The position numbers were made by a program, and so were the translations under genes. Shown piece by piece: positions 1-45,130 of a stretch of DNA of 45,130 bases. The notes beneath the pieces are model-generated. The model was given only the letters and a program-made list of their open reading frames with translations. It was not told the DNA's origin and did not search any database. The DNA is from Escherichia phage vB_EcoP_R4596. Position 1 is the stretch's first letter; every line of letters begins with the position of its first letter. Where the stretch lies: sequence record MK373771.1. The stretch is one strand, 5' to 3'.

Positions 1-285
1 TCTCGCCCTCGCCCTCGCCGGGTTGTCCCCATAGGGTAGCCTGAGGGAATCCGTCTCCGACGGGCAGGGCTGATGTACTCTTTGTACTAGCTTAGTAGTA
101 CACAAGGGCTGGCCTTTTGTTTTGCCGTGTACTAGTAAGGTGGAACGCTGTAGACGGCCTAGGACGGCCTAGGGAATGGCTTAGTGGCGGACAAGGTGAT
201 TGCCTTAGTGAAGCCTCTTAGCGCATTCCTGAGGCCATTCAGGGCGTTTATGAGGTATTGACAGGGTGTGCGTGGGTGTGGGCTA
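1..285. repeat. Left direct terminal repeat
   Basis: Bases 1-285 are identical to 44846-45130 by direct reading; the window ends inside the repeat, so its true length may be greater. Confidence 0.9.
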
Positions 286-289
286 TCTG

Positions 290-480
290 TTCGTTTCGTT
301 CACTCCGCTTGCGCTACGTTCACTCGCTCACGTGTACCTTAGGTTATTACTTGATGGATAGCTTAGGTTAGCCTTAGTGGATTACCTTAGTTATAACCTT
401 AGTGCTTAACTTAGTATTAGCTTAGTAGTGTACCTTAGTCAGTCTTAGTTTCTTCTCTTAGTGGTTGCATAGCTAAAGCT
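290..480. repeat. Array of short CTTAGT/CCTTAGT-like repeats next to the terminal repeat
   Basis: More than 12 irregularly spaced copies of (A/G)CCTTAGT(G/T) read directly; T7-like genomes carry short repeat arrays beside the terminal repeat. Confidence 0.6.
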
Positions 481-659
481 ATAAGATGCTAATAGGTCGC
501 GGTCGGTAGACCGCTAAAGAAAGAGAACAGTAATAAGATGCAGTAGGAGGAACACCAGAAACCTAGCCAACCTAAGCTATCCTAGCTCTATATCTATTGC
601 TTTTCCTTAGTCTAACACGTTAGACAACCTATCTTATTCTTAGTGATGGTAACTTAGTG

Positions 660-688
660 TTGACAAGATAATCTTAGTGTAATACTAT
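660..688 (+). promoter_or_regulatory. Candidate host sigma70 early promoter
   Basis: TTGACA (660-665), 17-bp spacer, TACTAT (683-688); lies upstream of the first early ORFs as for T7 A promoters. Confidence 0.45.
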
Positions 689-831
689 GCATCACGTAGG
701 CGGTGCTGAGGCACCTAGTAGCCAGCTAGTAAGGCATACGAAGAGACTAGCGCTTACATTGCTCTTTAACAATTTGCTTAGTGTAACCTATGTATGCCGT
801 GGTTAATTACTTATTGAATGAGGGATTAACT

Positions 832-1011
832 ATGACATTAAACAACCGTGAACTGTCCGTTCTCTTCACTATGTTGTGCTACATGATTCGTAACAACGAA
901 TTACTTACAGACGATGAGTTAGCCTTGTATCACCGCTTTCTTAACGAAGGTTGGACCGATACAGTTAATCAATACCGTAACATGATAGATGAGTTGAGGG
1001 AGGGTAAATAA
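832..1011 (+). CDS. Hypothetical early protein (59 aa from ATG 832; ORF track starts at 790)
   Basis: ORF with GAGGGA Shine-Dalgarno 6 nt upstream of ATG 832; no recognizable motif. Confidence 0.45.
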   Translation: MTLNNRELSVLFTMLCYMIRNNELLTDDELALYHRFLNEGWTDTVNQYRNMIDELREGK

Positions 1012-1235
1012 TGTATCAACATGAGGTATTCTTTGAATCAGCTAGCGAAGCTATTCGCTTCCGTGATGATATGATGCAAGCTGGTGTAGGCGTTGATGTG
1101 TATCACTATTTGATAGATTACGACACTGAATATCACCGAGTTACCTTAGTATCTGAGTATGACAACCAAGTCATTACTGAGTATCTAGGTAGTGAAGATT
1201 ATGATTACGATGAAGTAATCACGACAAATCTCTAA
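1011..1235 (+). CDS. Hypothetical acidic early protein (74 aa)
   Basis: ORF with strong GAGGGAGGG Shine-Dalgarno; start overlaps upstream stop (TAATG); Asp/Glu/Tyr-rich C-terminus. Confidence 0.5.
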   Translation: MYQHEVFFESASEAIRFRDDMMQAGVGVDVYHYLIDYDTEYHRVTLVSEYDNQVITEYLGSEDYDYDEVITTNL

Positions 1236-1243
1236 ATTAACTA

Positions 1244-1272
1244 TTGACAGCCACGGCATACAAGGTTACATT
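1244..1272 (+). promoter_or_regulatory. Candidate host sigma70 early promoter
   Basis: TTGACA (1244-1249), 17-bp spacer, TACATT (1267-1272). Confidence 0.4.
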
Positions 1273-1353
1273 AAGCACATAGCCGATAGGCAACGCTCTT
1301 TAACAATCTGGTTTGTGTCTTGATAGGCTAACTAACTAACTAAGGTAATTATT

Positions 1354-1464
1354 ATGAAAGGTTTAATTTGTGTAGAACGTATGGTCAATGGTAAACTTGA
1401 AATATTACCACTGGAAAACCAATCTAGCTTCAAAGAGTGGTATGGCTGTTTCTCACTGATTTAA
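1354..1464 (+). CDS. Small hypothetical early ORF (36 aa)
   Basis: ATG 1354 follows the CTAACTAACTAACTAA three-frame stop element and a weak AAGGT ribosome-binding site. Confidence 0.3.
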   Translation: MKGLICVERMVNGKLEILPLENQSSFKEWYGCFSLI

Positions 1465-1615
1465 GGTAAAGGCTGGCACTAGTCAGCCTATCAAGGCGCA
1501 AACCAAGCTCTTTAACAATTTGGATGGTAGCTTCTTAGTCTGGATAGGTTAAACCTAGGAGATTCTCTTGAGTCTCCTATAATGTAACCTAACTAACTAA
1601 ATGAGGATTAATAAC

Positions 1616-1975
1616 ATGGCTATGTCTAATATGACTTACTCTCAGGTTTACAACACCGCTCATGCTGCATTAGTTGAACGTATCTGGAATGATGATATTG
1701 ATTGTATCGATAACGCACATGATGCAATCCATGAGGTAGCGGACAGTGCTGTACCAATCTATTATGCTGACATCTTCTCAGTAATGGCGAGTGAGGGTAT
1801 TGATCACTTCTTCGAAGACTCCGGCCTGATGCCAGATACTAAGGATGTAACGGTCGTACTACAAGCCCGTATTTATGAACAACTCACCATTGATTTATGG
1901 GAACGTGTTCAAGATATGATTGTTGCGTACACCAATTACGCTGAGGATTCAGAAGAAGAAGAAGAGGAAGAATAA
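1616..1975 (+). CDS. ocr: Ocr-like DNA-mimic anti-restriction protein (T7 gp0.3 homolog, 119 aa)
   Basis: Translation MAMSNMTY...[44 protein letters not shown]...[15 protein letters not shown] plus poly-Glu tail matches T7 Ocr as recalled; GAGGA Shine-Dalgarno 8 nt before ATG 1616. Confidence 0.85.
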
Positions 1976-1977
1976 GG

Positions 1978-2091
1978 ATGGAAAAGCAATATAACTTTAT
2001 CTTTTCAGACGGTGTGACCCTGAAGTGTTCCCTGCGTTTCGCACAGATTCGCGAGGAAGTGCTAGGAACTACATACAAACTATTTAGCTGA
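1978..2091 (+). CDS. Small hypothetical ORF (37 aa)
   Basis: ATG immediately after the ocr stop, GAGGAAG upstream; no recognizable motif. Confidence 0.3.
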   Translation: MEKQYNFIFSDGVTLKCSLRFAQIREEVLGTTYKLFS

Positions 2092-2106
2092 CACTATAAG
2101 AGAGAG
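2081..2106 (+). promoter_or_regulatory. Divergent phage-RNAP promoter-like sequence
   Basis: TATTTAGCTGACACTATAAGAGAG resembles the ATTTACTGGACACTATAGAAG consensus but differs at the start site; followed by a 5' hairpin GGGCGCTCT-TGCG-AGAGTGCCC. Confidence 0.35.
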
Positions 2107-2166
2107 GGTTTAACAGGGCGCTCTTGCGAGAGTGCCCGATTAAATCAACTTAACGAGATATTAAAT

Positions 2167-2343
2167 ATGAAATACATACTGATTGCTATGTTTTCTGGCT
2201 TCATTGGCTATGCTGGTGCTTCTTATGACAACTACAGAAGTAAGCAATTGGCTGCTGAAAAGTGGGATAAAACCTATTTTGCTTGTATGAAACAAGGTAA
2301 TTTGATGCAAGATTGCATACTTAAAGCGCACAGCGAAGAGTGA
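2167..2343 (+). CDS. Small protein with hydrophobic signal-peptide-like N-terminus (58 aa)
   Basis: ORF MKYILIAMFSGFIGYAGASYD...; weak ribosome-binding site. Confidence 0.35.
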   Translation: MKYILIAMFSGFIGYAGASYDNYRSKQLAAEKWDKTYFACMKQGNLMQDCILKAHSEE

Positions 2344-2407
2344 TGAGCCTATAGCCTACTTAAGTGGGCTATGTGAACACCATTCATTAACTCAAAAGGT
2401 GACTATT

Positions 2408-3331
2408 ATGACTACTGAAAACACCCTCCTGTCTGTTCGTGAAGCTGCAACCGCTGAGATCAAGCAACACTTAGACAATATCGGCACTTCTTACATCAAA
2501 GTTGGCGCTTGTCTTAATGAGTTACGCGGTGACTTTGAAGGTCAAAAAGACTTTTTGGCTTATGTAGAATCAGAATTTGGAATCAAGAAAGCACAATGTT
2601 ACAAGCTGATGAGTGTAGCCCGTGTCTTTGAAGGCGATGATCGCTTTAAAGGCGTGGCGATGCGTGTAATGCTGGCACTTGTTCCTTTCGCTGATGAAAA
2701 TATCATCATGGAGAAAGCCGCAGAACTTGCCGCAGCGGGCAAGCTGGACACTAATGCCGTAAATGCCCTGATTGATCCTAAGAAAGAGACAAAGGCCGAG
2801 ACGGTACAATCTAAGGCTGAGGCGGTAAAACCGCAGGAGAATGCGACTGAGGCCGCAGAAACTATGCAAGGACATGCGACCTTTGAGGATTTCATCTTAG
2901 AGAAGGCGAAAGAGGAATTACAAAGTGTGCCGCCAGTAAGTGAGTCGGGTAACGACGAATCCGCACCGTGGGAAGATGAAAGCAAGCCGGAAGCGCCAAA
3001 GGCCGCGCCACTGGATAACACGGCTAACACGGAGAACGCCGCTATGTCTGGCCTACTGGCACAAATTAAGGCACTGACTGAGCAATTACAGGCAGCTAAC
3101 GACCGCATCGCCGCCCTAACCAGTGCACGGGAAAGTAAGAAAGCGGCTGCGCCTATGCTTCCGCAGTTTAAATCCTCTTGCTTCTACGCTCGCTTAGGCT
3201 TGAGCGCCGAGGAAGCAACGAAGAAAACAGCAGTGAATAAGGCACGCCGTGAACTGGTTAAACTAGGGTATGGTGAAGGTCATGAGGCATGGCCTTTGAT
3301 CTCTGAGGCAGTAGAAGAATTAACTAAGTAA
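2408..3331 (+). CDS. Hypothetical early protein (307 aa) with low-complexity acidic/Ala-rich centre and coiled-coil C-terminal region
   Basis: Long ORF; AAGGTGA Shine-Dalgarno before ATG 2408 (track begins at GTG 2399); no kinase or other motif recognized. Confidence 0.6.
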   Translation: MTTENTLLSVREAATAEIKQHLDNIGTSYIKVGACLNELRGDFEGQKDFLAYVESEFGIKKAQCYKLMSVARVFEGDDRFKGVAMRVMLALVPFADENIIMEKAAELAAAGKLDTNAVNALIDPKKETKAETVQSKAEAVKPQENATEAAETMQGHATFEDFILEKAKEELQSVPPVSESGNDESAPWEDESKPEAPKAAPLDNTANTENAAMSGLLAQIKALTEQLQAANDRIAALTSARESKKAAAPMLPQFKSSCFYARLGLSAEEATKKTAVNKARRELVKLGYGEGHEAWPLISEAVEELTK

Positions 3332-3394
3332 CCTTATCGGTGGCATCTTCTTAGGTGTCACCTATTAAGGTTTCTTTCACTAGGAGTAAACAAG

Positions 3395-6022
3395 ATGCAA
3401 GATCTACACGCTATTCAGCTTCAGCTTGAGGAAGAAATGTTTAACGGCGGTATTCGTCGCTTTGAAGCAGACCAACAACGCCAGATTGCATCAGGTAATG
3501 AATCCGATACGGCATGGAATCGTCGCCTGTTGTCGGAGCTTATCGCACCTATGGCGGAAGGTATTCAGGCTTATAAGGAAGCCTACGAAGGCAAGAAAGG
3601 ACGCGCACCGCGTGCACTGGCCTTCATTAACTGCGTAGAGAACGAAGTGGCAGCATATATCACGATGAAGATCGTAATGGATATGCTTAACACAGATGTA
3701 ACCTTGCAAGCCATAGCAATGAATGTAGCTGATCGCATCGAAGATCAAGTACGCTTCAGCAAGCTGGAAGGCCACGCCGCCAAATACTTTGAAAAAGTTA
3801 AGAAGTCACTCAAGGCAAGTAAGACTAAATCATATCGCCATGCGCACAACGTAGCGGTAGTGGCTGAGAAGTCAGTAGCTGACCGTGACACTGATTTCTC
3901 CCGCTGGGAGGCGTGGCCTAAAGATACCTTACTGCAAATCGGTATGACCTTGCTAGAAATACTGGAGAATAGCGTATTCTTCAATGGTCAACCTGTCTTC
4001 CTCCGCACCTTGCGCACTAATGGTGGCAAGCATGGTGTTTACTACTTACAGACCAGTGAGCACGTAGGGGAGTGGATTACAGCATTTAAAGAACATGTAG
4101 CGCAACTTAGTCCGGCCTATGCACCTTGCGTCATTCCTCCGCGCCCTTGGGTGTCCCCTTTTAATGGTGGGTTTCATACTGAGAAGGTGGCAAGTCGCAT
4201 CCGTTTGGTAAAAGGCAACCGTGAGCACGTCCGTAAGCTGACCAAAAAGCAAATGCCAGCAGTTTATAAGGCTGTTAATGCTTTACAGGCCACTAAGTGG
4301 CAAGTTAACAAAGAAGTTTTGCAGGTAGTAGAAGACGTTATCCGTCTCGACCTTGGTTATGGTGTACCTTCCTTTAAACCACTCATCGACCGCGAGAACA
4401 AGCCGGCTAACCCAGTGCCGTTAGAATTTCAACACTTGCGAGGCCGCGAACTGAAGGAAATGTTAACGCCGGAACAATGGCAAGCCTTCATCAACTGGAA
4501 AGGTGAATGCACCAAGCTGTATACCGCTGAGACTAAGCGCGGAAGTAAGTCGGCGGCAACCGTTCGCATGGTAGGACAAGCGCGCAAATACAGCCAGTTT
4601 GATGCGATTTATTTCGTGTATGCACTGGATAGCCGCTCACGCGTTTATGCGCAATCTAGCACACTCTCACCGCAATCAAACGACCTAGGCAAGGCGTTAC
4701 TGCGTTTTACCGAAGGGCAGCCGCTAAATAGCTCTGAGGCGCTTAAATGGTTTTTGGTGAACGGGGCGAATAACTGGGGTTGGGATAAGAAGACTTTCGA
4801 CGTGCGCACCGCTAACGTACTGGACGGCGAGTTTCAAGATATGTGCCGCGACATTGCAGCGGATCCTCTGACCTTTACTCAATGGGTAAATGCCGATTCA
4901 CCTTATGGATTCCTTGCATGGTGCTTTGAGTATGCTCGTTATTTGGATGCACTGGATGAAGGAACACAAGATCAGTTTGTGACGCATTTACCTGTTCATC
5001 AAGATGGTAGCTGTTCTGGCATCCAGCACTACAGTGCTATGCTACGCGACGAAGTGGGTGCGAAGGCGGTAAACCTTAAACCATCCGACTCGCCTCAAGA
5101 TATTTATGGAGCGGTTGCGCAGGTTGTTATCCAGAAGAACTACGCCTACATGAATGCAGATGATACAGAAACTTTCACATCTGGAAGCGTAACACTTACA
5201 GGTGCAGAACTGCGTAGCATGGCTAGTGCATGGGATATGATAGGTATCACTCGCGGCTTAACCAAAAAGCCGGTAATGACCTTGCCTTACGGATCCACAC
5301 GCTTAACCTGCCGTGAGTCAGTGATTGATTATATCGTTGATTTGGAAGAAAAAGAGGCACAAAGGGCTATTGCAGAAGGGCGGACGGCTAATCCGGTGCA
5401 CCCTTTTGACAATGACCGGAAAGACTATTTAACACCGGGTGCAGCTTACAACTATATGACGGCGTTAATTTGGCCTTCTATCTCTGAGGTTGTTAAAGCC
5501 CCTATAGTGGCAATGAAAATGATTCGCCAGCTTGCACGTTTCGCAGCTAAAAGGGATGAAGGATTAGAATACACCTTGCCAACTGGCTTCATCCTGCAAC
5601 AAAAGATAATGGCTACCGATATGCTTCGTGTATCCACTTGCTTGATGGGTGAAATCAAGATGAGTCTACAAATTGAAACGGATGTAGTGGATGAAACGGC
5701 AATGATGGGCGCTGCCGCTCCTAACTTTGTTCACGGTCACGATGCTAGTCACCTTATATTAACGGTATGTGACCTAGTGGATAAAGGTATTACCTCCATT
5801 GCAGTTATCCATGACTCTTTCGGTACTCATGCAGGCCGCACCGCAGACCTGCGGGATAGCTTAAGGGCAGAAATGGTGAAGATGTATCAAGGCCGTAACG
5901 CTTTACAACAATTGCTTGATGAGCATGAAGAGCGTTGGCTAGTAGATACTGGCATCCAAGTGCCAGAGCAAGGGGAGTTTAACCTTGAAGAGATATTAGT
6001 TTCTGACTATTGCTTCGCATAA
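3395..6022 (+). CDS. Single-subunit DNA-dependent RNA polymerase (T7 gp1-like, 875 aa)
   Basis: Motifs [38 protein letters not shown] and C-terminal ...DYCFA match the T7/SP6 RNAP family; GGAG ribosome-binding site. Confidence 0.97.
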
Positions 6023-6030
6023 TATTGATA

Positions 6031-6060
6031 GGCCATTCCTTCGGGAGTGGCCTTTTCTTT
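6031..6060 (+). terminator. Stem-loop terminator after the RNAP gene
   Basis: GGCCATTCC-TTCG-GGAGTGGCC followed by TTTTCTTT. Confidence 0.55.
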
Positions 6061-6095
6061 ACCTATTACCTGTAACATTTCATTAACATAAACGT

Positions 6096-6111
6096 GTCTC
6101 ACATGTGAGAC
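6096..6111. repeat. 16-bp perfect palindrome GTCTCACATGTGAGAC (copy a)
   Basis: Read directly; immediately 5' of the promoter at 6113. Confidence 0.9.
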
Positions 6112-6112
6112 T

Positions 6113-6135
6113 TATTTACCGGACACTATAGGAGA
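6113..6135 (+). promoter_or_regulatory. Phage-RNAP promoter
   Basis: TTTACCGGACACTATAGGAGAG; matches the window consensus. Confidence 0.7.
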
Positions 6136-6278
6136 GCCGTCGGAGACGGGAAAGAGAAGGGAAGATAAAGGATATAAAGGAAGTAATAGGTATTAAAGGT
6201 TATATAGGTTTACCTAGGAATACCTATTACCTTCTTCCTTCCTCTTATTACCACTTAGAGGAAGGGCAGATCTAGGTT

Positions 6279-6294
6279 GTCTCACATGTGAGAC
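6279..6294. repeat. 16-bp perfect palindrome GTCTCACATGTGAGAC (copy b)
   Basis: Read directly; immediately 5' of the promoter-like sequence at 6299. Confidence 0.9.
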
Positions 6295-6298
6295 TTCG

Positions 6299-6321
6299 TA
6301 TTTACCGGACAGTATAGATAA
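6299..6321 (+). promoter_or_regulatory. Phage-RNAP promoter-like sequence (variant CAGTATAG)
   Basis: TATTTACCGGACAGTATAGATAAG; one substitution in the conserved CACTATAG core. Confidence 0.45.
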
Positions 6322-6347
6322 GACTAACTTACTTTGGAGATTTAACT

Positions 6348-6476
6348 ATGCGTAACCTAGAAAAGATTACCCGTAAAACTAAGCGTTTCGACATGGAAGA
6401 AGGGCAGACTAAAGGCAAGAAGCTGAATAAACCTGTCCGTGACCGTGCATCTAAACGCGCTGCGTGGGAGTTCTAA
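6348..6476 (+). CDS. Small basic protein (42 aa)
   Basis: GGAGA ribosome-binding site; Lys/Arg-rich translation MRNLEKITRKTKRF... Confidence 0.4.
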   Translation: MRNLEKITRKTKRFDMEEGQTKGKKLNKPVRDRASKRAAWEF

Positions 6477-6479
6477 GTT

Positions 6480-8468
6480 ATGGCTATTATTCAGAATGTA
6501 CCGTGTCCTGCCTGTCAAAAGAATGGACATGATATTACTGGCAACCATCTTATGATATTTGAGGATGGCGCTGGTTACTGTAATCGTGGTCACTTCCATG
6601 ATAACGGTAAGCCTTACTATCATAAGCCAGAGGGCGGCATCGAGATAACCGAATTGCCCATTACTGGCAATATCAAATACACACCTTCTCAATTCAAAGA
6701 AATGGAGAAGGAAGGGAAGATAAGCGACCCTAAGCTACGCGCCATCGCACTAGGTGGTATGCGTATGAAAGACCGTTGGGAGGTCATGAATGAGCAAGAA
6801 AGGGCAGAGCAAGAAGCAGAGTGGAAACTTGATGTTGAATGGTTCCTCACGCTTAAGCGTAAGAATCTTGTTTCCCGACACATTCGCGGCGACATTTGCG
6901 CATTGTATGATGTACGTGTCGGACATGATGAAGAGGGTAGAGTCTCACGGCATTACTATCCACGCTTCGAGAAAGGTGAACTAGTAGGCGCTAAGTGTCG
7001 CACATTACCTAAAGACTTTAAGTTTGGTCATTTAGGTAAACTATTTGGTATGCAAGATCTTTTCGGTATGAACACTTTGTCTCACGTGTTAGACAAGGGG
7101 AGACGAAAGGATTGCTTGCTTATTGTAGGCGGTGAACTTGATGCACTAGCAGCGCAGCAGATGCTCCTTGATTCTGCCAAAGGTACTAAGTGGGAAGGTC
7201 AGCCATACCATGTATGGTCTGTCAATAAAGGTGAGTCTTGCCTTGAAGAGATAGTGCAAAACCGTGAGCACATATCCCAATTCAAGAAGATTATATGGGG
7301 CTTTGATGGCGACGAGGTGGGGCAGAAGCAGAACCAACAAGCTGCTCGCCTGTTTCCTGGCAAATCCTACATCCTCGAATATCCATCTGGTTGCAAAGAT
7401 GCTAACAAGGCATTGATGGCTGGCAAGGCTAAAGAGTTTGTAGATGCATGGTTTAATGCCAAGTCATCTGATGAAGTCTTTGGTAGCCAGATTAAATCTA
7501 TCGCATCTCAAAGGGATAAGCTCAAGGCTGCACGTCCAGAACAAGGGCTGTCATGGCCTTGGCCTAAGCTAAACAAGGTAACGCTGGGTATCCGTAAGAA
7601 TCAGCTTATCATTGTAGGCGCAGGCTCTGGTGTGGGTAAGACTGAGTTCCTCCGTGAAGTAGTTAAGCATCTCATTGAAGAACACGGTGAATCTGTAGGC
7701 ATCATTTCTACAGAAGACCCGATGGTTAAGGTGTCCCGTGCTTTTATCGGTAAGTGGATTGATAAGCGTATTGAGCTACCGCCAACCAATGACCCGAAAG
7801 AAGATGGATACCGTGAGGTGTTCGACTATACCGAGGAAGAGGCTAACGCTGCCATTGACTATGTAGCTGATACAGGGAAGCTGTTTGTGGCTGACCTAGA
7901 GGGTGACTATTCAATGGAGAAGGTAGAGCAGACCTGCCTTGAGTTTGAGGCTATGGGTATTTCCAATATCATCATTGATAACTTAACGGGGATTAAATTA
8001 GATGAGCGTGCTTTTGGTGGGAAGGTTGGTGCACTTGATGAATGCGTCAAGCGGATTGGTACTATCAAAGACCGACACCCAGTTACTATATTCCTTGTAT
8101 CACACCTTACACGTCCTCCGGCAAACCGTACCCAACACGAAGAAGGTGGCGAAGTTATCCTTTCTGACTTCCGAGGCTCAGGAGCTATCGGATTCTGGGC
8201 ATCTTACGCCTTGGGCATCGAAAGGAACACGAGGGCAGAGACACTAGATGAGCGAACTACTACCTATATTTCCTGTGTTAAAGATAGGGATCAAGGGATT
8301 TACTCTGGTACTAAGATTATGCTTAAGGGTGACATCGCTACGGGCCGACTGCTAGAACCACAAGCCCGTACTAAGTCATTTGATACAGGTGAAGCAAGGC
8401 AACAAGAAGTACCTGATTTACCGGACACTATAGAAGAGACAACCTTTGACGATGAACAGGAGTTTTAA
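6480..8468 (+). CDS. DNA primase/helicase (T7 gp4-like, 662 aa)
   Basis: N-terminal Cys4 zinc motif CPACQ...CNRGH, Walker A GAGSGVGKTE, acidic C-terminal tail ending DDEQEF. Confidence 0.93.
   Translation: MAIIQNVPCPACQKNGHDITGNHLMIFEDGAGYCNRGHFHDNGKPYYHKPEGGIEITELPITGNIKYTPSQFKEMEKEGKISDPKLRAIALGGMRMKDRWEVMNEQERAEQEAEWKLDVEWFLTLKRKNLVSRHIRGDICALYDVRVGHDEEGRVSRHYYPRFEKGELVGAKCRTLPKDFKFGHLGKLFGMQDLFGMNTLSHVLDKGRRKDCLLIVGGELDALAAQQMLLDSAKGTKWEGQPYHVWSVNKGESCLEEIVQNREHISQFKKIIWGFDGDEVGQKQNQQAARLFPGKSYILEYPSGCKDANKALMAGKAKEFVDAWFNAKSSDEVFGSQIKSIASQRDKLKAARPEQGLSWPWPKLNKVTLGIRKNQLIIVGAGSGVGKTEFLREVVKHLIEEHGESVGIISTEDPMVKVSRAFIGKWIDKRIELPPTNDPKEDGYREVFDYTEEEANAAIDYVADTGKLFVADLEGDYSMEKVEQTCLEFEAMGISNIIIDNLTGIKLDERAFGGKVGALDECVKRIGTIKDRHPVTIFLVSHLTRPPANRTQHEEGGEVILSDFRGSGAIGFWASYALGIERNTRAETLDERTTTYISCVKDRDQGIYSGTKIMLKGDIATGRLLEPQARTKSFDTGEARQQEVPDLPDTIEETTFDDEQEF
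8415..8438 (+). promoter_or_regulatory. Phage-RNAP promoter inside the 3' end of the primase/helicase gene
   Basis: GATTTACCGGACACTATAGAAGAG. Confidence 0.65.
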
Positions 8469-44845: not shown

Positions 44846-45130
44846 TCTCGCCCTCGCCCTCGCCGGGTTGTCCCCATAGGGTAGCCTGAGGGAATCCGTC
44901 TCCGACGGGCAGGGCTGATGTACTCTTTGTACTAGCTTAGTAGTACACAAGGGCTGGCCTTTTGTTTTGCCGTGTACTAGTAAGGTGGAACGCTGTAGAC
45001 GGCCTAGGACGGCCTAGGGAATGGCTTAGTGGCGGACAAGGTGATTGCCTTAGTGAAGCCTCTTAGCGCATTCCTGAGGCCATTCAGGGCGTTTATGAGG
45101 TATTGACAGGGTGTGCGTGGGTGTGGGCTA
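44846..45130. repeat. Right direct terminal repeat (identical to 1-285)
   Basis: Direct reading; truncated by the window end. Confidence 0.9.

Follow-up and report, generated by a model that had tools for sequence, protein, structure and literature searches.

A repeated unit of rrn-type boxA and predicted gene-bracketing helices in the early region of an SP6-like Escherichia phage

Anti-termination at boxA and processing by RNase III are classic, and each is separately known in the ribosomal RNA (rRNA) operons and in the early RNA of phage T7. The boxA element nucleates a transcription complex that is resistant to Rho and elongates faster. On the host RNA polymerase boxA recruits NusB-NusE, and the helices formed between leader and trailer are substrates of RNase III (PMC10250234). 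Untranslated RNA is rapidly terminated by Rho, and the arrays of clustered regularly interspaced short palindromic repeats (CRISPR) are protected by antitermination (PMC7665894). The functional boxA consensus for γ-proteobacteria is GYTCTTTAANA (PMC5725501). That the early regions of T7-type phages carry boxA is already known. In T7 it is an anti-termination element whose mutation, by the account of Savalia 2010 as cited in PMC3709561, makes gp2, the inhibitor of host RNA polymerase, dispensable; therefore, the boxA-modified host RNA polymerase is functional in T7. Here we describe the region at 754-1600 in the genome of Escherichia phage vB_EcoP_R4596 (sequence record MK373771.1), in which three boxA copies lie beside strands of predicted helices, two of which bracket small genes. 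The whole stretch of DNA analysed, the window, is this 45,130-bp genome, and positions refer to it unless another record is named. We consider it probable that the region is an immediate-early leader transcribed by host RNA polymerase and laid out like a miniature rRNA (rrn) operon, with Nus anti-termination and RNase III processing combined in a portable cassette.

The original prediction had noted that a 16-mer, GCTCTTTAACAAT(T/C)TG, occurs three times in this region. It does, always on the + strand and with no other copy in the 45 kb, although the starts are 761, 1295 and 1507, so that the last two had each been placed off by one (1294 and 1506). The pattern GCTCTTTAACAATYTG has three exact matches (761-776, 1295-1310 and 1507-1522), compared to 0.05 expected from dinucleotide shuffles, and none of 100 shuffles reached three. 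What had not been recognised is that the 16-mer is by its sequence an rrn-type boxA, a NusB/NusE site and thus a known kind of element. The 12-nucleotide (nt) core, GCTCTTTAACAA, which occupies 761-772 in boxA1, 1295-1306 in boxA2 and 1507-1518 in boxA3, is identical to that of the boxA in the E. coli rrnB leader (517-528), and 15 of the 16 nt match. boxA1 and boxA3 match the rrnB leader over 15 nt, while boxA2 shares AATCTGG with the rrnB spacer boxA. The core is also identical to the T7 boxA (GCTCTTTAACAATCTGG; nt 813, between promoter A3 and gene 0.3). The γ-proteobacterial consensus matches the genome in three places only, and these are the three copies, each an exact fit. By analogy with the sites cited above, we infer that they bind NusB-NusE and confer faster, Rho-resistant elongation. 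Relatives were sampled as the early regions of 20 annotated phages and further IMG/VR contigs, and conservation, on which the original prediction had staked itself, was found, the motifs being kept in every relative examined. Some copies elsewhere deviate in the core. SP6 has GATCTTTAACAA before ocr (record position 1536), which breaks a conserved consensus position, and therefore not every boxA copy need be functional; pSL2 has GCTCTTTAATAA and GTTCTTTAACAA (record positions 675 and 1742), and in phage 101117UKE2 boxA1 (record position 1063) is GTTCTTTAACAA, with which the consensus is still satisfied.

The three copies are placed where only the host enzyme should read them. They lie on the + strand below σ70 promoters predicted by consensus scan and above the first phage promoter. 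The early promoter, TTGACA-17-TACTAT at 660-688 (+ strand), has 10 of 12 consensus matches, is present in relatives and is expected to start transcription at about 695; promoter b, TTGACA-17-TACATT at 1244-1272 (+ strand), is expected to start it at about 1279. The copies are thus 16-70 nt downstream of predicted promoters in the case of boxA1 and boxA2, with about 66 nt between the expected transcription start and boxA1 and about 16 nt for boxA2, and boxA3 follows the trailer strand of the helix that we call helix B. boxA2 and boxA3 are intergenic, and the only open reading frame (ORF) across boxA1 (687-806) begins upstream of the predicted start and is without homolog support. The first SP6-type promoter for the phage RNA polymerase, at 2085-2103 on the + strand, has zero mismatches to TAGNTGACACTATARRAGA and marks the end of the host-polymerase-only segment, since the pattern has 12 more + strand matches downstream and none upstream. 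Therefore, 754-1600 should be readable only by host RNA polymerase at the start of infection.

Local folding of the leader that follows boxA2 gave no structure (z +0.3 to +0.4), and for this reason distant pairing partners were sought. An inverted repeat (I1, 26 nt, 88% complementary) provides one. The 5' strand of helix B (TGGTTTGTGTCTTGATAGG; 1309-1327, extendable to 1334 into the first CTAACTA) pairs with a 3' strand (CCTATCAAGGCGCAAACCA; 1487-1505, extendable back to 1480) that ends 1 nt before boxA3. The resulting helix of 19-26 bp, at about -41 kcal/mol, brackets an ORF of 36 amino acids (aa) taken from the ORF list (1354-1464, + strand), which is the cargo of what we call a type-B cassette, and it is found in the minimum free energy (MFE) and the centroid folds of 1290-1525 (z -2.2). 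Across 16 distinct sequences 96.5% of the cells of its 18 pairs are paired, and both sides have changed in 8 of these pairs (29 cells); the observed score was reached by none of 500 shuffles, and slid registers gave only 29-42% pairing. Abutting the 3' strand is a trailing hairpin (AGGCTGGC-ACTA-GTCAGCCT, 1470-1489, + strand) that also covaries, with different stem sequences in Kc166A, My1, pSL2, SP6 and others.

The leader strand of helix A, 775-804, starts 2 nt after boxA1 and was found through the inverted repeats I3 and I4, and its trailer strand, 1249-1277, comprises the spacer and the -10 of promoter b. With 29 bp and a duplex energy of -48 kcal/mol it brackets the ORFs at 832-1235. These are two small early ORFs of the + strand in the ORF list, 832-1011 (59 aa) and 1011-1235 (74 aa), which match PHROG 9275 and PHROG 6403 (both of unknown function) and are the counterparts of K1-5 genes 1 and 2. 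When 14,535 pairs of 40-nt segments within 600-2100 were ranked by duplex energy (mean -11.9, standard deviation 4.1), helices A and B were the two best, and helix A the best of all. Helix A is present in the MFE and the centroid folds of 755-1300 (z -5.9). Its alignment of 11 sequences has 98.3% of cells paired over 28 pairs, 5 of which are compensatory; phD2B, which was misregistered in the first MAFFT alignment and was left out of this count, forms its own version of the helix (duplex -49.6 kcal/mol).

Folding and covariation analysis across related phages, a check proposed with the original prediction, thus supports both helices, and the covariation extends over SP6-, T7- and T5-like phages. 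Cognate strands pair better than non-cognate ones (-29.9 against -21.5 kcal/mol). Among the cells that are not Watson-Crick, G·U on the + strand predominates (34, compared to 8 A·C), and this bias argues for selection on the + strand RNA and not for symmetry of the DNA. Other cassettes follow the same plan with different helix sequences, for example TAGAGATTAG / CTAATCTCTA in K1E-type phages. On this analysis, helices A and B would be leader-trailer helices for processing by RNase III. The region does then contain elements of the leader or processing type, as had been supposed, and what had been missed is that the sequences flanking the repeat are halves of long-range helices.

The double role of the helix A trailer strand also accounts for two other features. 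The spacer and -10 of promoter b are conserved because they form this strand, and the same fact explains why GGCATAC...TTACATT stands upstream of the second 16-mer (1254-1260 and 1266-1272). It had been pointed out that this pair of motifs precedes the first copy as well, and there it is at 733-739 and 754-760. The + strand segment upstream of boxA1 (733-760) is a partial copy of the helix A trailer and promoter b without a -35, and is probably a remnant of recombination. The local fold around boxA1 (695-835) is not significant (z -1.2), and in its MFE structure the 733-760 segment pairs with 790-797. A local GGCATAC/GTATGCC pairing at boxA1 was rejected since it is not conserved in pSL2 and UAB_Phi78, where the boxA that this segment precedes has a type-B leader. 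The stretch between promoter b and boxA2 (1273-1294; K1-5 record 1222-1254) occurs as two unrelated alleles, CACATAGCCGATAGGCAAC here and in 101117UKE2, and ATCAAGACGGCGACGTCTTTAAACATCCC, which contains a small palindrome, in most relatives. Going by these alleles it is another mosaic joint, one that ends exactly at boxA.

How closely this arrangement follows the E. coli rrn operon can be seen by setting the two side by side. 3' of each phage boxA is a helix strand, whose partner lies 0.2-0.5 kb downstream and before the next boxA in the case of boxA1 and boxA2 and is local in the case of boxA3. In the rrn operon, whose anti-terminator consists of boxB, boxA and boxC and is combined with 16S and 23S leader-trailer helices, a boxA with an identical core likewise stands directly before the 5' strand of a long helix, and the partner strand is beyond the enclosed RNA. 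In rrnB, the 16S leader-trailer strand (529-572) comes right after boxA (517-528) and forms a duplex with 2206-2249 at -57.9 kcal/mol, and a second, spacer boxA comes after this first bracketed unit (rrnB record position 2523). The phage helices, at 19-29 bp, are within the RNase III substrate range, as are those of rrn. There are, however, clear differences. The RNA enclosed in the phage is translated mRNA of 0.1-0.4 kb and not rRNA; the next boxA comes 1-17 nt after the trailer strand (0-33 nt in relatives), compared to about 270 nt in rrn; boxC is not conserved; one trailer strand is also a σ70 promoter; and the units are exchanged horizontally between phages.

Based on this likeness, we propose that each boxA would bind host NusB-NusE and, together with NusA, NusG and SuhB, would convert E. 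coli RNA polymerase to an anti-termination complex that is fast and resists Rho. About 29% of the early transcript is untranslated, in stretches of 118-151 nt, and the complex would cross these and reach ocr and the phage RNA polymerase gene (3395-6022) before any phage protein is present. The phage would in this way protect its early transcript by host factors alone. The helices of 19-29 bp would serve as RNase III substrates, such that the polycistronic early RNA would be cut into stable mRNAs whose ends are kept base-paired. As has been proposed for rRNA, the leader strand may be kept close to the polymerase by the complex at boxA until the trailer has emerged, and the next boxA would then reload the Nus factors. 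A bolder version, a 'boxA relay' common to virulent enterobacterial phages of three families (SP6-like, some T7-like and the T5-like My1) in which the Nus-modified polymerase loops each ORF, hands it to RNase III and reloads at the adjacent boxA, we put forward only tentatively, as possible rather than probable.

In the nut sites of phage λ too, boxA RNA recruits NusB and NusE to host RNA polymerase on a phage early transcript. The λ boxA, however, is off the rrn consensus and needs the phage protein N bound to boxB, whereas the boxA copies described here are perfect consensus sites, no phage protein could be present at the time of action and no N-like gene is evident. The boxA copies of CRISPR leaders and of the suhB 5' untranslated region resemble ours in being non-rRNA uses of boxA that control Rho on poorly translated RNA (PMC7665894, PMC5725501), but they are single, chromosomal and not paired with bracketing helices.

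The direct counterpart of the T7 early leader (promoters A1-A3, boxA, the RNase III site R0.3 and gene 0.3) is the third unit, consisting of boxA3, hairpin C and ocr. Both phages have the order promoter, boxA, structured hairpin and ocr; T7 differs in having one boxA and local hairpins only, compared to three boxA copies and two helices split around ORFs here. Hairpin C (1536-1599, + strand) is a local bipartite hairpin with a layout like that of R0.3 and at the same position, between boxA and gene 0.3. Its lower stem (1536-1551 with 1585-1599) and 10-bp upper stem (1556-1579) are separated by an asymmetric internal loop of 4/5 nt and closed by a UCUU loop. It folds at -27.1 kcal/mol (z -4.1), and none of 200 shuffles folds as well. 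When sequences are folded separately, this fold recurs in relatives, which conserve the lower stem and build the upper one from at least four unrelated sequences. The hairpin sequences of the two phages are unrelated by eye, there being no similarity between T7 (record 426-525) and 1523-1600 of the window beyond boxA, and T7 is not among the distant-BLAST matches listed. The ocr gene, a gene 0.3-like anti-restriction protein (1616-1975, + strand; PHROG 2568, E 7e-49), shares its N-terminus with T7 gene 0.3. An in-frame ATG at 1601 would lengthen its ORF by five codons, but the T7-like MAMSNMTY and a GAGGA 9 nt upstream indicate that the true start is likely 1616. On the minus strand an SP6-type promoter pattern with two mismatches lies inside hairpin C (1573-1591) and probably arises by chance from the TAGGAGA stem sequence.

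The original prediction had called the region a modular early-gene junction, and this description has held up well, since between the same flanks different phages carry at least 12 small ORFs (36-95 aa) that are unrelated to one another. The 5' flank of a type-B unit consists of boxA, a leader strand ending in GATAGG, a linker, AAGGT, NACTATC and ATG; its 3' flank consists of the stop codon, the covarying hairpin, a trailer strand beginning with CCTATC and the next boxA. In 14 of 17 instances 41-46 nt separate the stop codon from the boxA that follows. The 36-aa ORF, for which there is no PHROG match, is identical in K1-5, VEc3 and Sem4, whereas other phages have unrelated ORFs of 52-95 aa in its place. 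Two to five boxA copies in the same arrangement are found in each SP6-like genome examined. Cassettes occur in SP6-like phages, in phD2B, in the T7-like K30 and Kc166A (Studiervirinae), where they are upstream of the usual boxA-hairpin-ocr unit, and in the T5-like Pectobacterium phage My1 (122 kb), where the cassette is inside the terminal repeat and its helix strands are strongly diverged yet fully compensated. Further near-consensus boxA copies were seen in this My1 region. Deletion and insertion variants among relatives have their breakpoints at boxA. In Ro_P3a and CC1 the upstream side of boxA2 is fused to the downstream side of boxA3; UTI89UKE2 has five boxA copies and the K1E record examined four or more; a fifth copy appears at 2333/2443. 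These breakpoints, together with the varied cargo, make 'modular' apt, and the different ORFs within the same flanks mean that the repeats would also be where recombination shuffles the early genes.

The nearest precedent for such shuffling is found in the PeSL cassettes of T4-type phages, which combine an early promoter with a terminator-like stem-loop (PMC2839356, PMC4122927). There too, modules are shuffled by way of short conserved regulatory repeats that lie on either side of small variable early ORFs. The present cassettes are analogous to PeSLs and not members of them; the flanks are boxA and halves of a gene-bracketing helix, the trailing hairpin is without a U-tract, and the phage families are other ones, with no sequence relationship. 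K1E-type phages have, in addition, an extra 158-nt unit between two boxA copies (UTI89UKE2 record 1863-2032; K1E record 1974-2143), closed by its own 12-bp helix (TAGAGATTAGGC / GTCTAATCTCTA), with a fold z of only -1.0. No convincing + strand ORF (the record annotates a minus-strand coding sequence) and no Rfam match were found in it, and it could be a small processed RNA. The SP6, K1-5, K1E and K30 records examined have no annotation of boxA, helix or cassette, and in the open full-text literature, a scope that leaves the original SP6 and K1-5 genome papers outside, we found no paper on boxA reiteration, bracketing helices or a cross-family cassette.

Besides the 16-mer, the original prediction had drawn attention to (CTAA)n tracts that place TAA in all three frames. 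The 12-mer CTAACTAACTAA is at 1328, 1332 and 1589 (0.30 expected; none of 100 shuffles reaches three) and does carry TAA in the three frames, at its offsets 1, 5 and 9. The two + strand tracts are not alike. (CTAA)4, at 1328-1343, is the G-free linker from helix B to the Shine-Dalgarno sequence of the 36-aa ORF (AAGG, 1342-1345), and (CTAA)3, at 1589-1600, is the 3' arm of the hairpin C lower stem, just 5' of the Shine-Dalgarno sequence of ocr (GAGGA, 1603-1607). GATAGG, which had been said to precede both, is present at 1322-1327 and 1543-1548, but it adjoins the tract only in the second copy and is 40 nt upstream of it in the third. In relatives the linker at the homologous position is CTTACTAACA..., CTTACTCACA... 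or CTCACTCAC..., often without stops in one or two frames. The most fitting description is that the second-copy tract is a version, expanded by slippage, of a conserved G-free linker and that the third-copy tract is a hairpin arm.

Four other explanations of the locus have to be weighed. That the conserved unit is a leader with a universal stop, which halts ribosomes coming from upstream before the next ribosome-binding site, is improbable in our estimate. The three-frame TAA of both tracts would agree with it, as would TAACTAACT(A/G)A before ocr in all SP6-like relatives examined and the finding that three-frame closure within 30 nt of the start is commoner in boxA leaders (18 of 54, which are phylogenetically non-independent) than in the other genes of this genome (12 of 115) or random 30-mers (9%). 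There is, however, no reading frame to stop, for the upstream ORFs end at 1235 and 1464, 93 and 125 nt before the tracts. The type-B leaders of K30, KL01, DT115P1, Kc166A, L032 and My1 keep the G-free CTNACTNAC linker without the closure, the number of CTAA repeats varies from 2 to 4 among close relatives, and the ocr tract is base-paired in hairpin C. Because the upstream ORFs end earlier, the closure is lost in homologous leaders and the repeat number varies, we conclude from the sequences compared that the three-frame stop is incidental or at most ancillary; as a selected function that blocks read-through it was rejected on its loss in the six homologous type-B leaders. An element acting at the level of DNA, with the inverted repeats as terminal inverted repeats or recombination sites of a mobile cassette, boxA as target or crossover repeats and no RNA structure, is also quite unlikely. 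The cassettes are clearly exchanged, as the Ro_P3a and CC1 fusions and the copy numbers in UTI89UKE2 and K1E attest, and unrelated cargo lies between identical flanks in three phage families, but symmetry of the DNA would not lead one to expect the G·U bias of the transcribed strand. The direct repeat, moreover, is always the rrn boxA of the host and not an arbitrary target, and on these two grounds a transposon-like element with target duplication was rejected. The cassettes also have no transposase or recombinase, the 3' strand of helix A also serves as a promoter, and the helices are placed exactly as in rrnB.

The other two alternatives accept that Nus factors bind and assign them another role. 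The case of suhB shows that a boxA near a start codon can act negatively, by repressing translation and favouring termination by Rho (PMC5725501), and this precedent makes the sign of the boxA effect on each ORF uncertain. If the boxA-bound Nus factors exerted this negative control here, they would repress translation of the small ORFs and promote termination, and boxA2 and boxA1 are indeed 59 nt and 71 nt upstream of the 1354 and 832 start codons, respectively. We regard such control as very unlikely to be the main role of the sites. The genetics of T7, as far as they are given in PMC3709561, favour anti-termination, for boxA mutations relieve the need for gp2, meaning less read-through by host RNA polymerase; the essential ocr and the phage RNA polymerase gene are downstream, so that premature termination would be costly; and the architecture matches the rrn operon and not suhB. 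Least plausible of all is a Nus-factor decoy, in which the three boxA copies, of high affinity and on a very strongly transcribed early RNA, would titrate NusB, NusE and SuhB off the rrn operons of the host and so aid host shut-off. It would fit copies that are perfect rrn-consensus sites and not of the weaker λ type, the 2-5 copies in this phage group and the suggestion that cellular levels of the rrnTAC proteins may tune the efficiency of assembly. Direct evidence for a decoy, however, was not found, most T7-like contigs manage with one copy, and a decoy leaves the tight coupling of boxA to helix strands unexplained.

Several points also weigh against the miniature-rRNA-operon reading that we prefer. 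The promoters, Nus binding, Rho resistance and RNase III cleavage in it are ones that we infer. The rrn anti-termination complexes also use boxC and S4, and beside the phage copies there is only a GT-rich resemblance to boxC (TGTGT, 7-9 nt after boxA). Most boxA-bearing viral contigs have a single boxA, and therefore reiteration is not needed for boxA function. The sequences in the covariation sets are related, so the cell counts given above exaggerate how many independent events there were. For hairpin C, RNAalifold on a MAFFT alignment returned the invariant lower stem only and no covariation, because the upper stems are non-homologous, and the evidence for the upper stem is the separate fold of each sequence.

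The rest of the genome is in keeping with an SP6-like phage. It has a direct terminal repeat of 285 bp (1-285 = 44846-45130), and the window is thus the complete linear genome. At its left end it shares 96% identity with Escherichia phage vB_EcoP-101117UKE2 and about 94% with K1-5. Both relatives belong to Vectrevirus, a genus of the subfamily Molineuxvirinae (the SP6-like branch of the T7 supergroup), and the window is a Vectrevirus (K1-5-like) genome. The phage RNA polymerase gene is followed by a terminator-like hairpin (6030-6053). No relevant family came out of Rfam scans that covered 1-8000 and the extra K1E-type segment. The hexamer CTTAGT has 13 copies within 330-800, compared to 0.78 per kb genome-wide. 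It forms arrays at 373-457, where eight copies are spaced 10-13 nt just inside the terminal repeat, and at 606-673, which recall the short repeats at the T7 left end, and it also opens the helix A leader strand (777). A perfect 16-bp palindrome, GTCTCACATGTGAGAC, occurs five times (6096, 6279, 8647, 14393 and 30805), with the copies at 6096 and 14393 located 21-34 nt upstream of phage-type promoters (6117 and 14427). It may be a terminator or pause site for the phage RNA polymerase, or a regulatory site.

What sets this region apart is that it fuses boxA and processing-type helices into a repeated unit that brackets protein-coding genes. If our reading is true, the unit would be a compact natural substrate, of 0.2-0.5 kb compared to 1.5-2.9 kb, for studying strand bridging by the Nus complex and the speed of RNase III cleavage, and the conserved spacer of an early σ70 promoter would be explained by its second role as an RNA helix strand. 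If the tentative 'boxA relay' is also true, it would be the first natural case of an mRNA system that draws on the RNA-bridging and chaperone activity of the rrn anti-termination complex, and it would provide a mechanism for the ORF-precise swapping of early anti-host genes. The flanks also have a practical use in that they allow cargo genes to be located in new genomes, and these genes are likely to be host-takeover or anti-defence genes. For the phages themselves the finding would mean that a cassette system moves unrelated small early ORFs among T7-, SP6- and T5-like phages.

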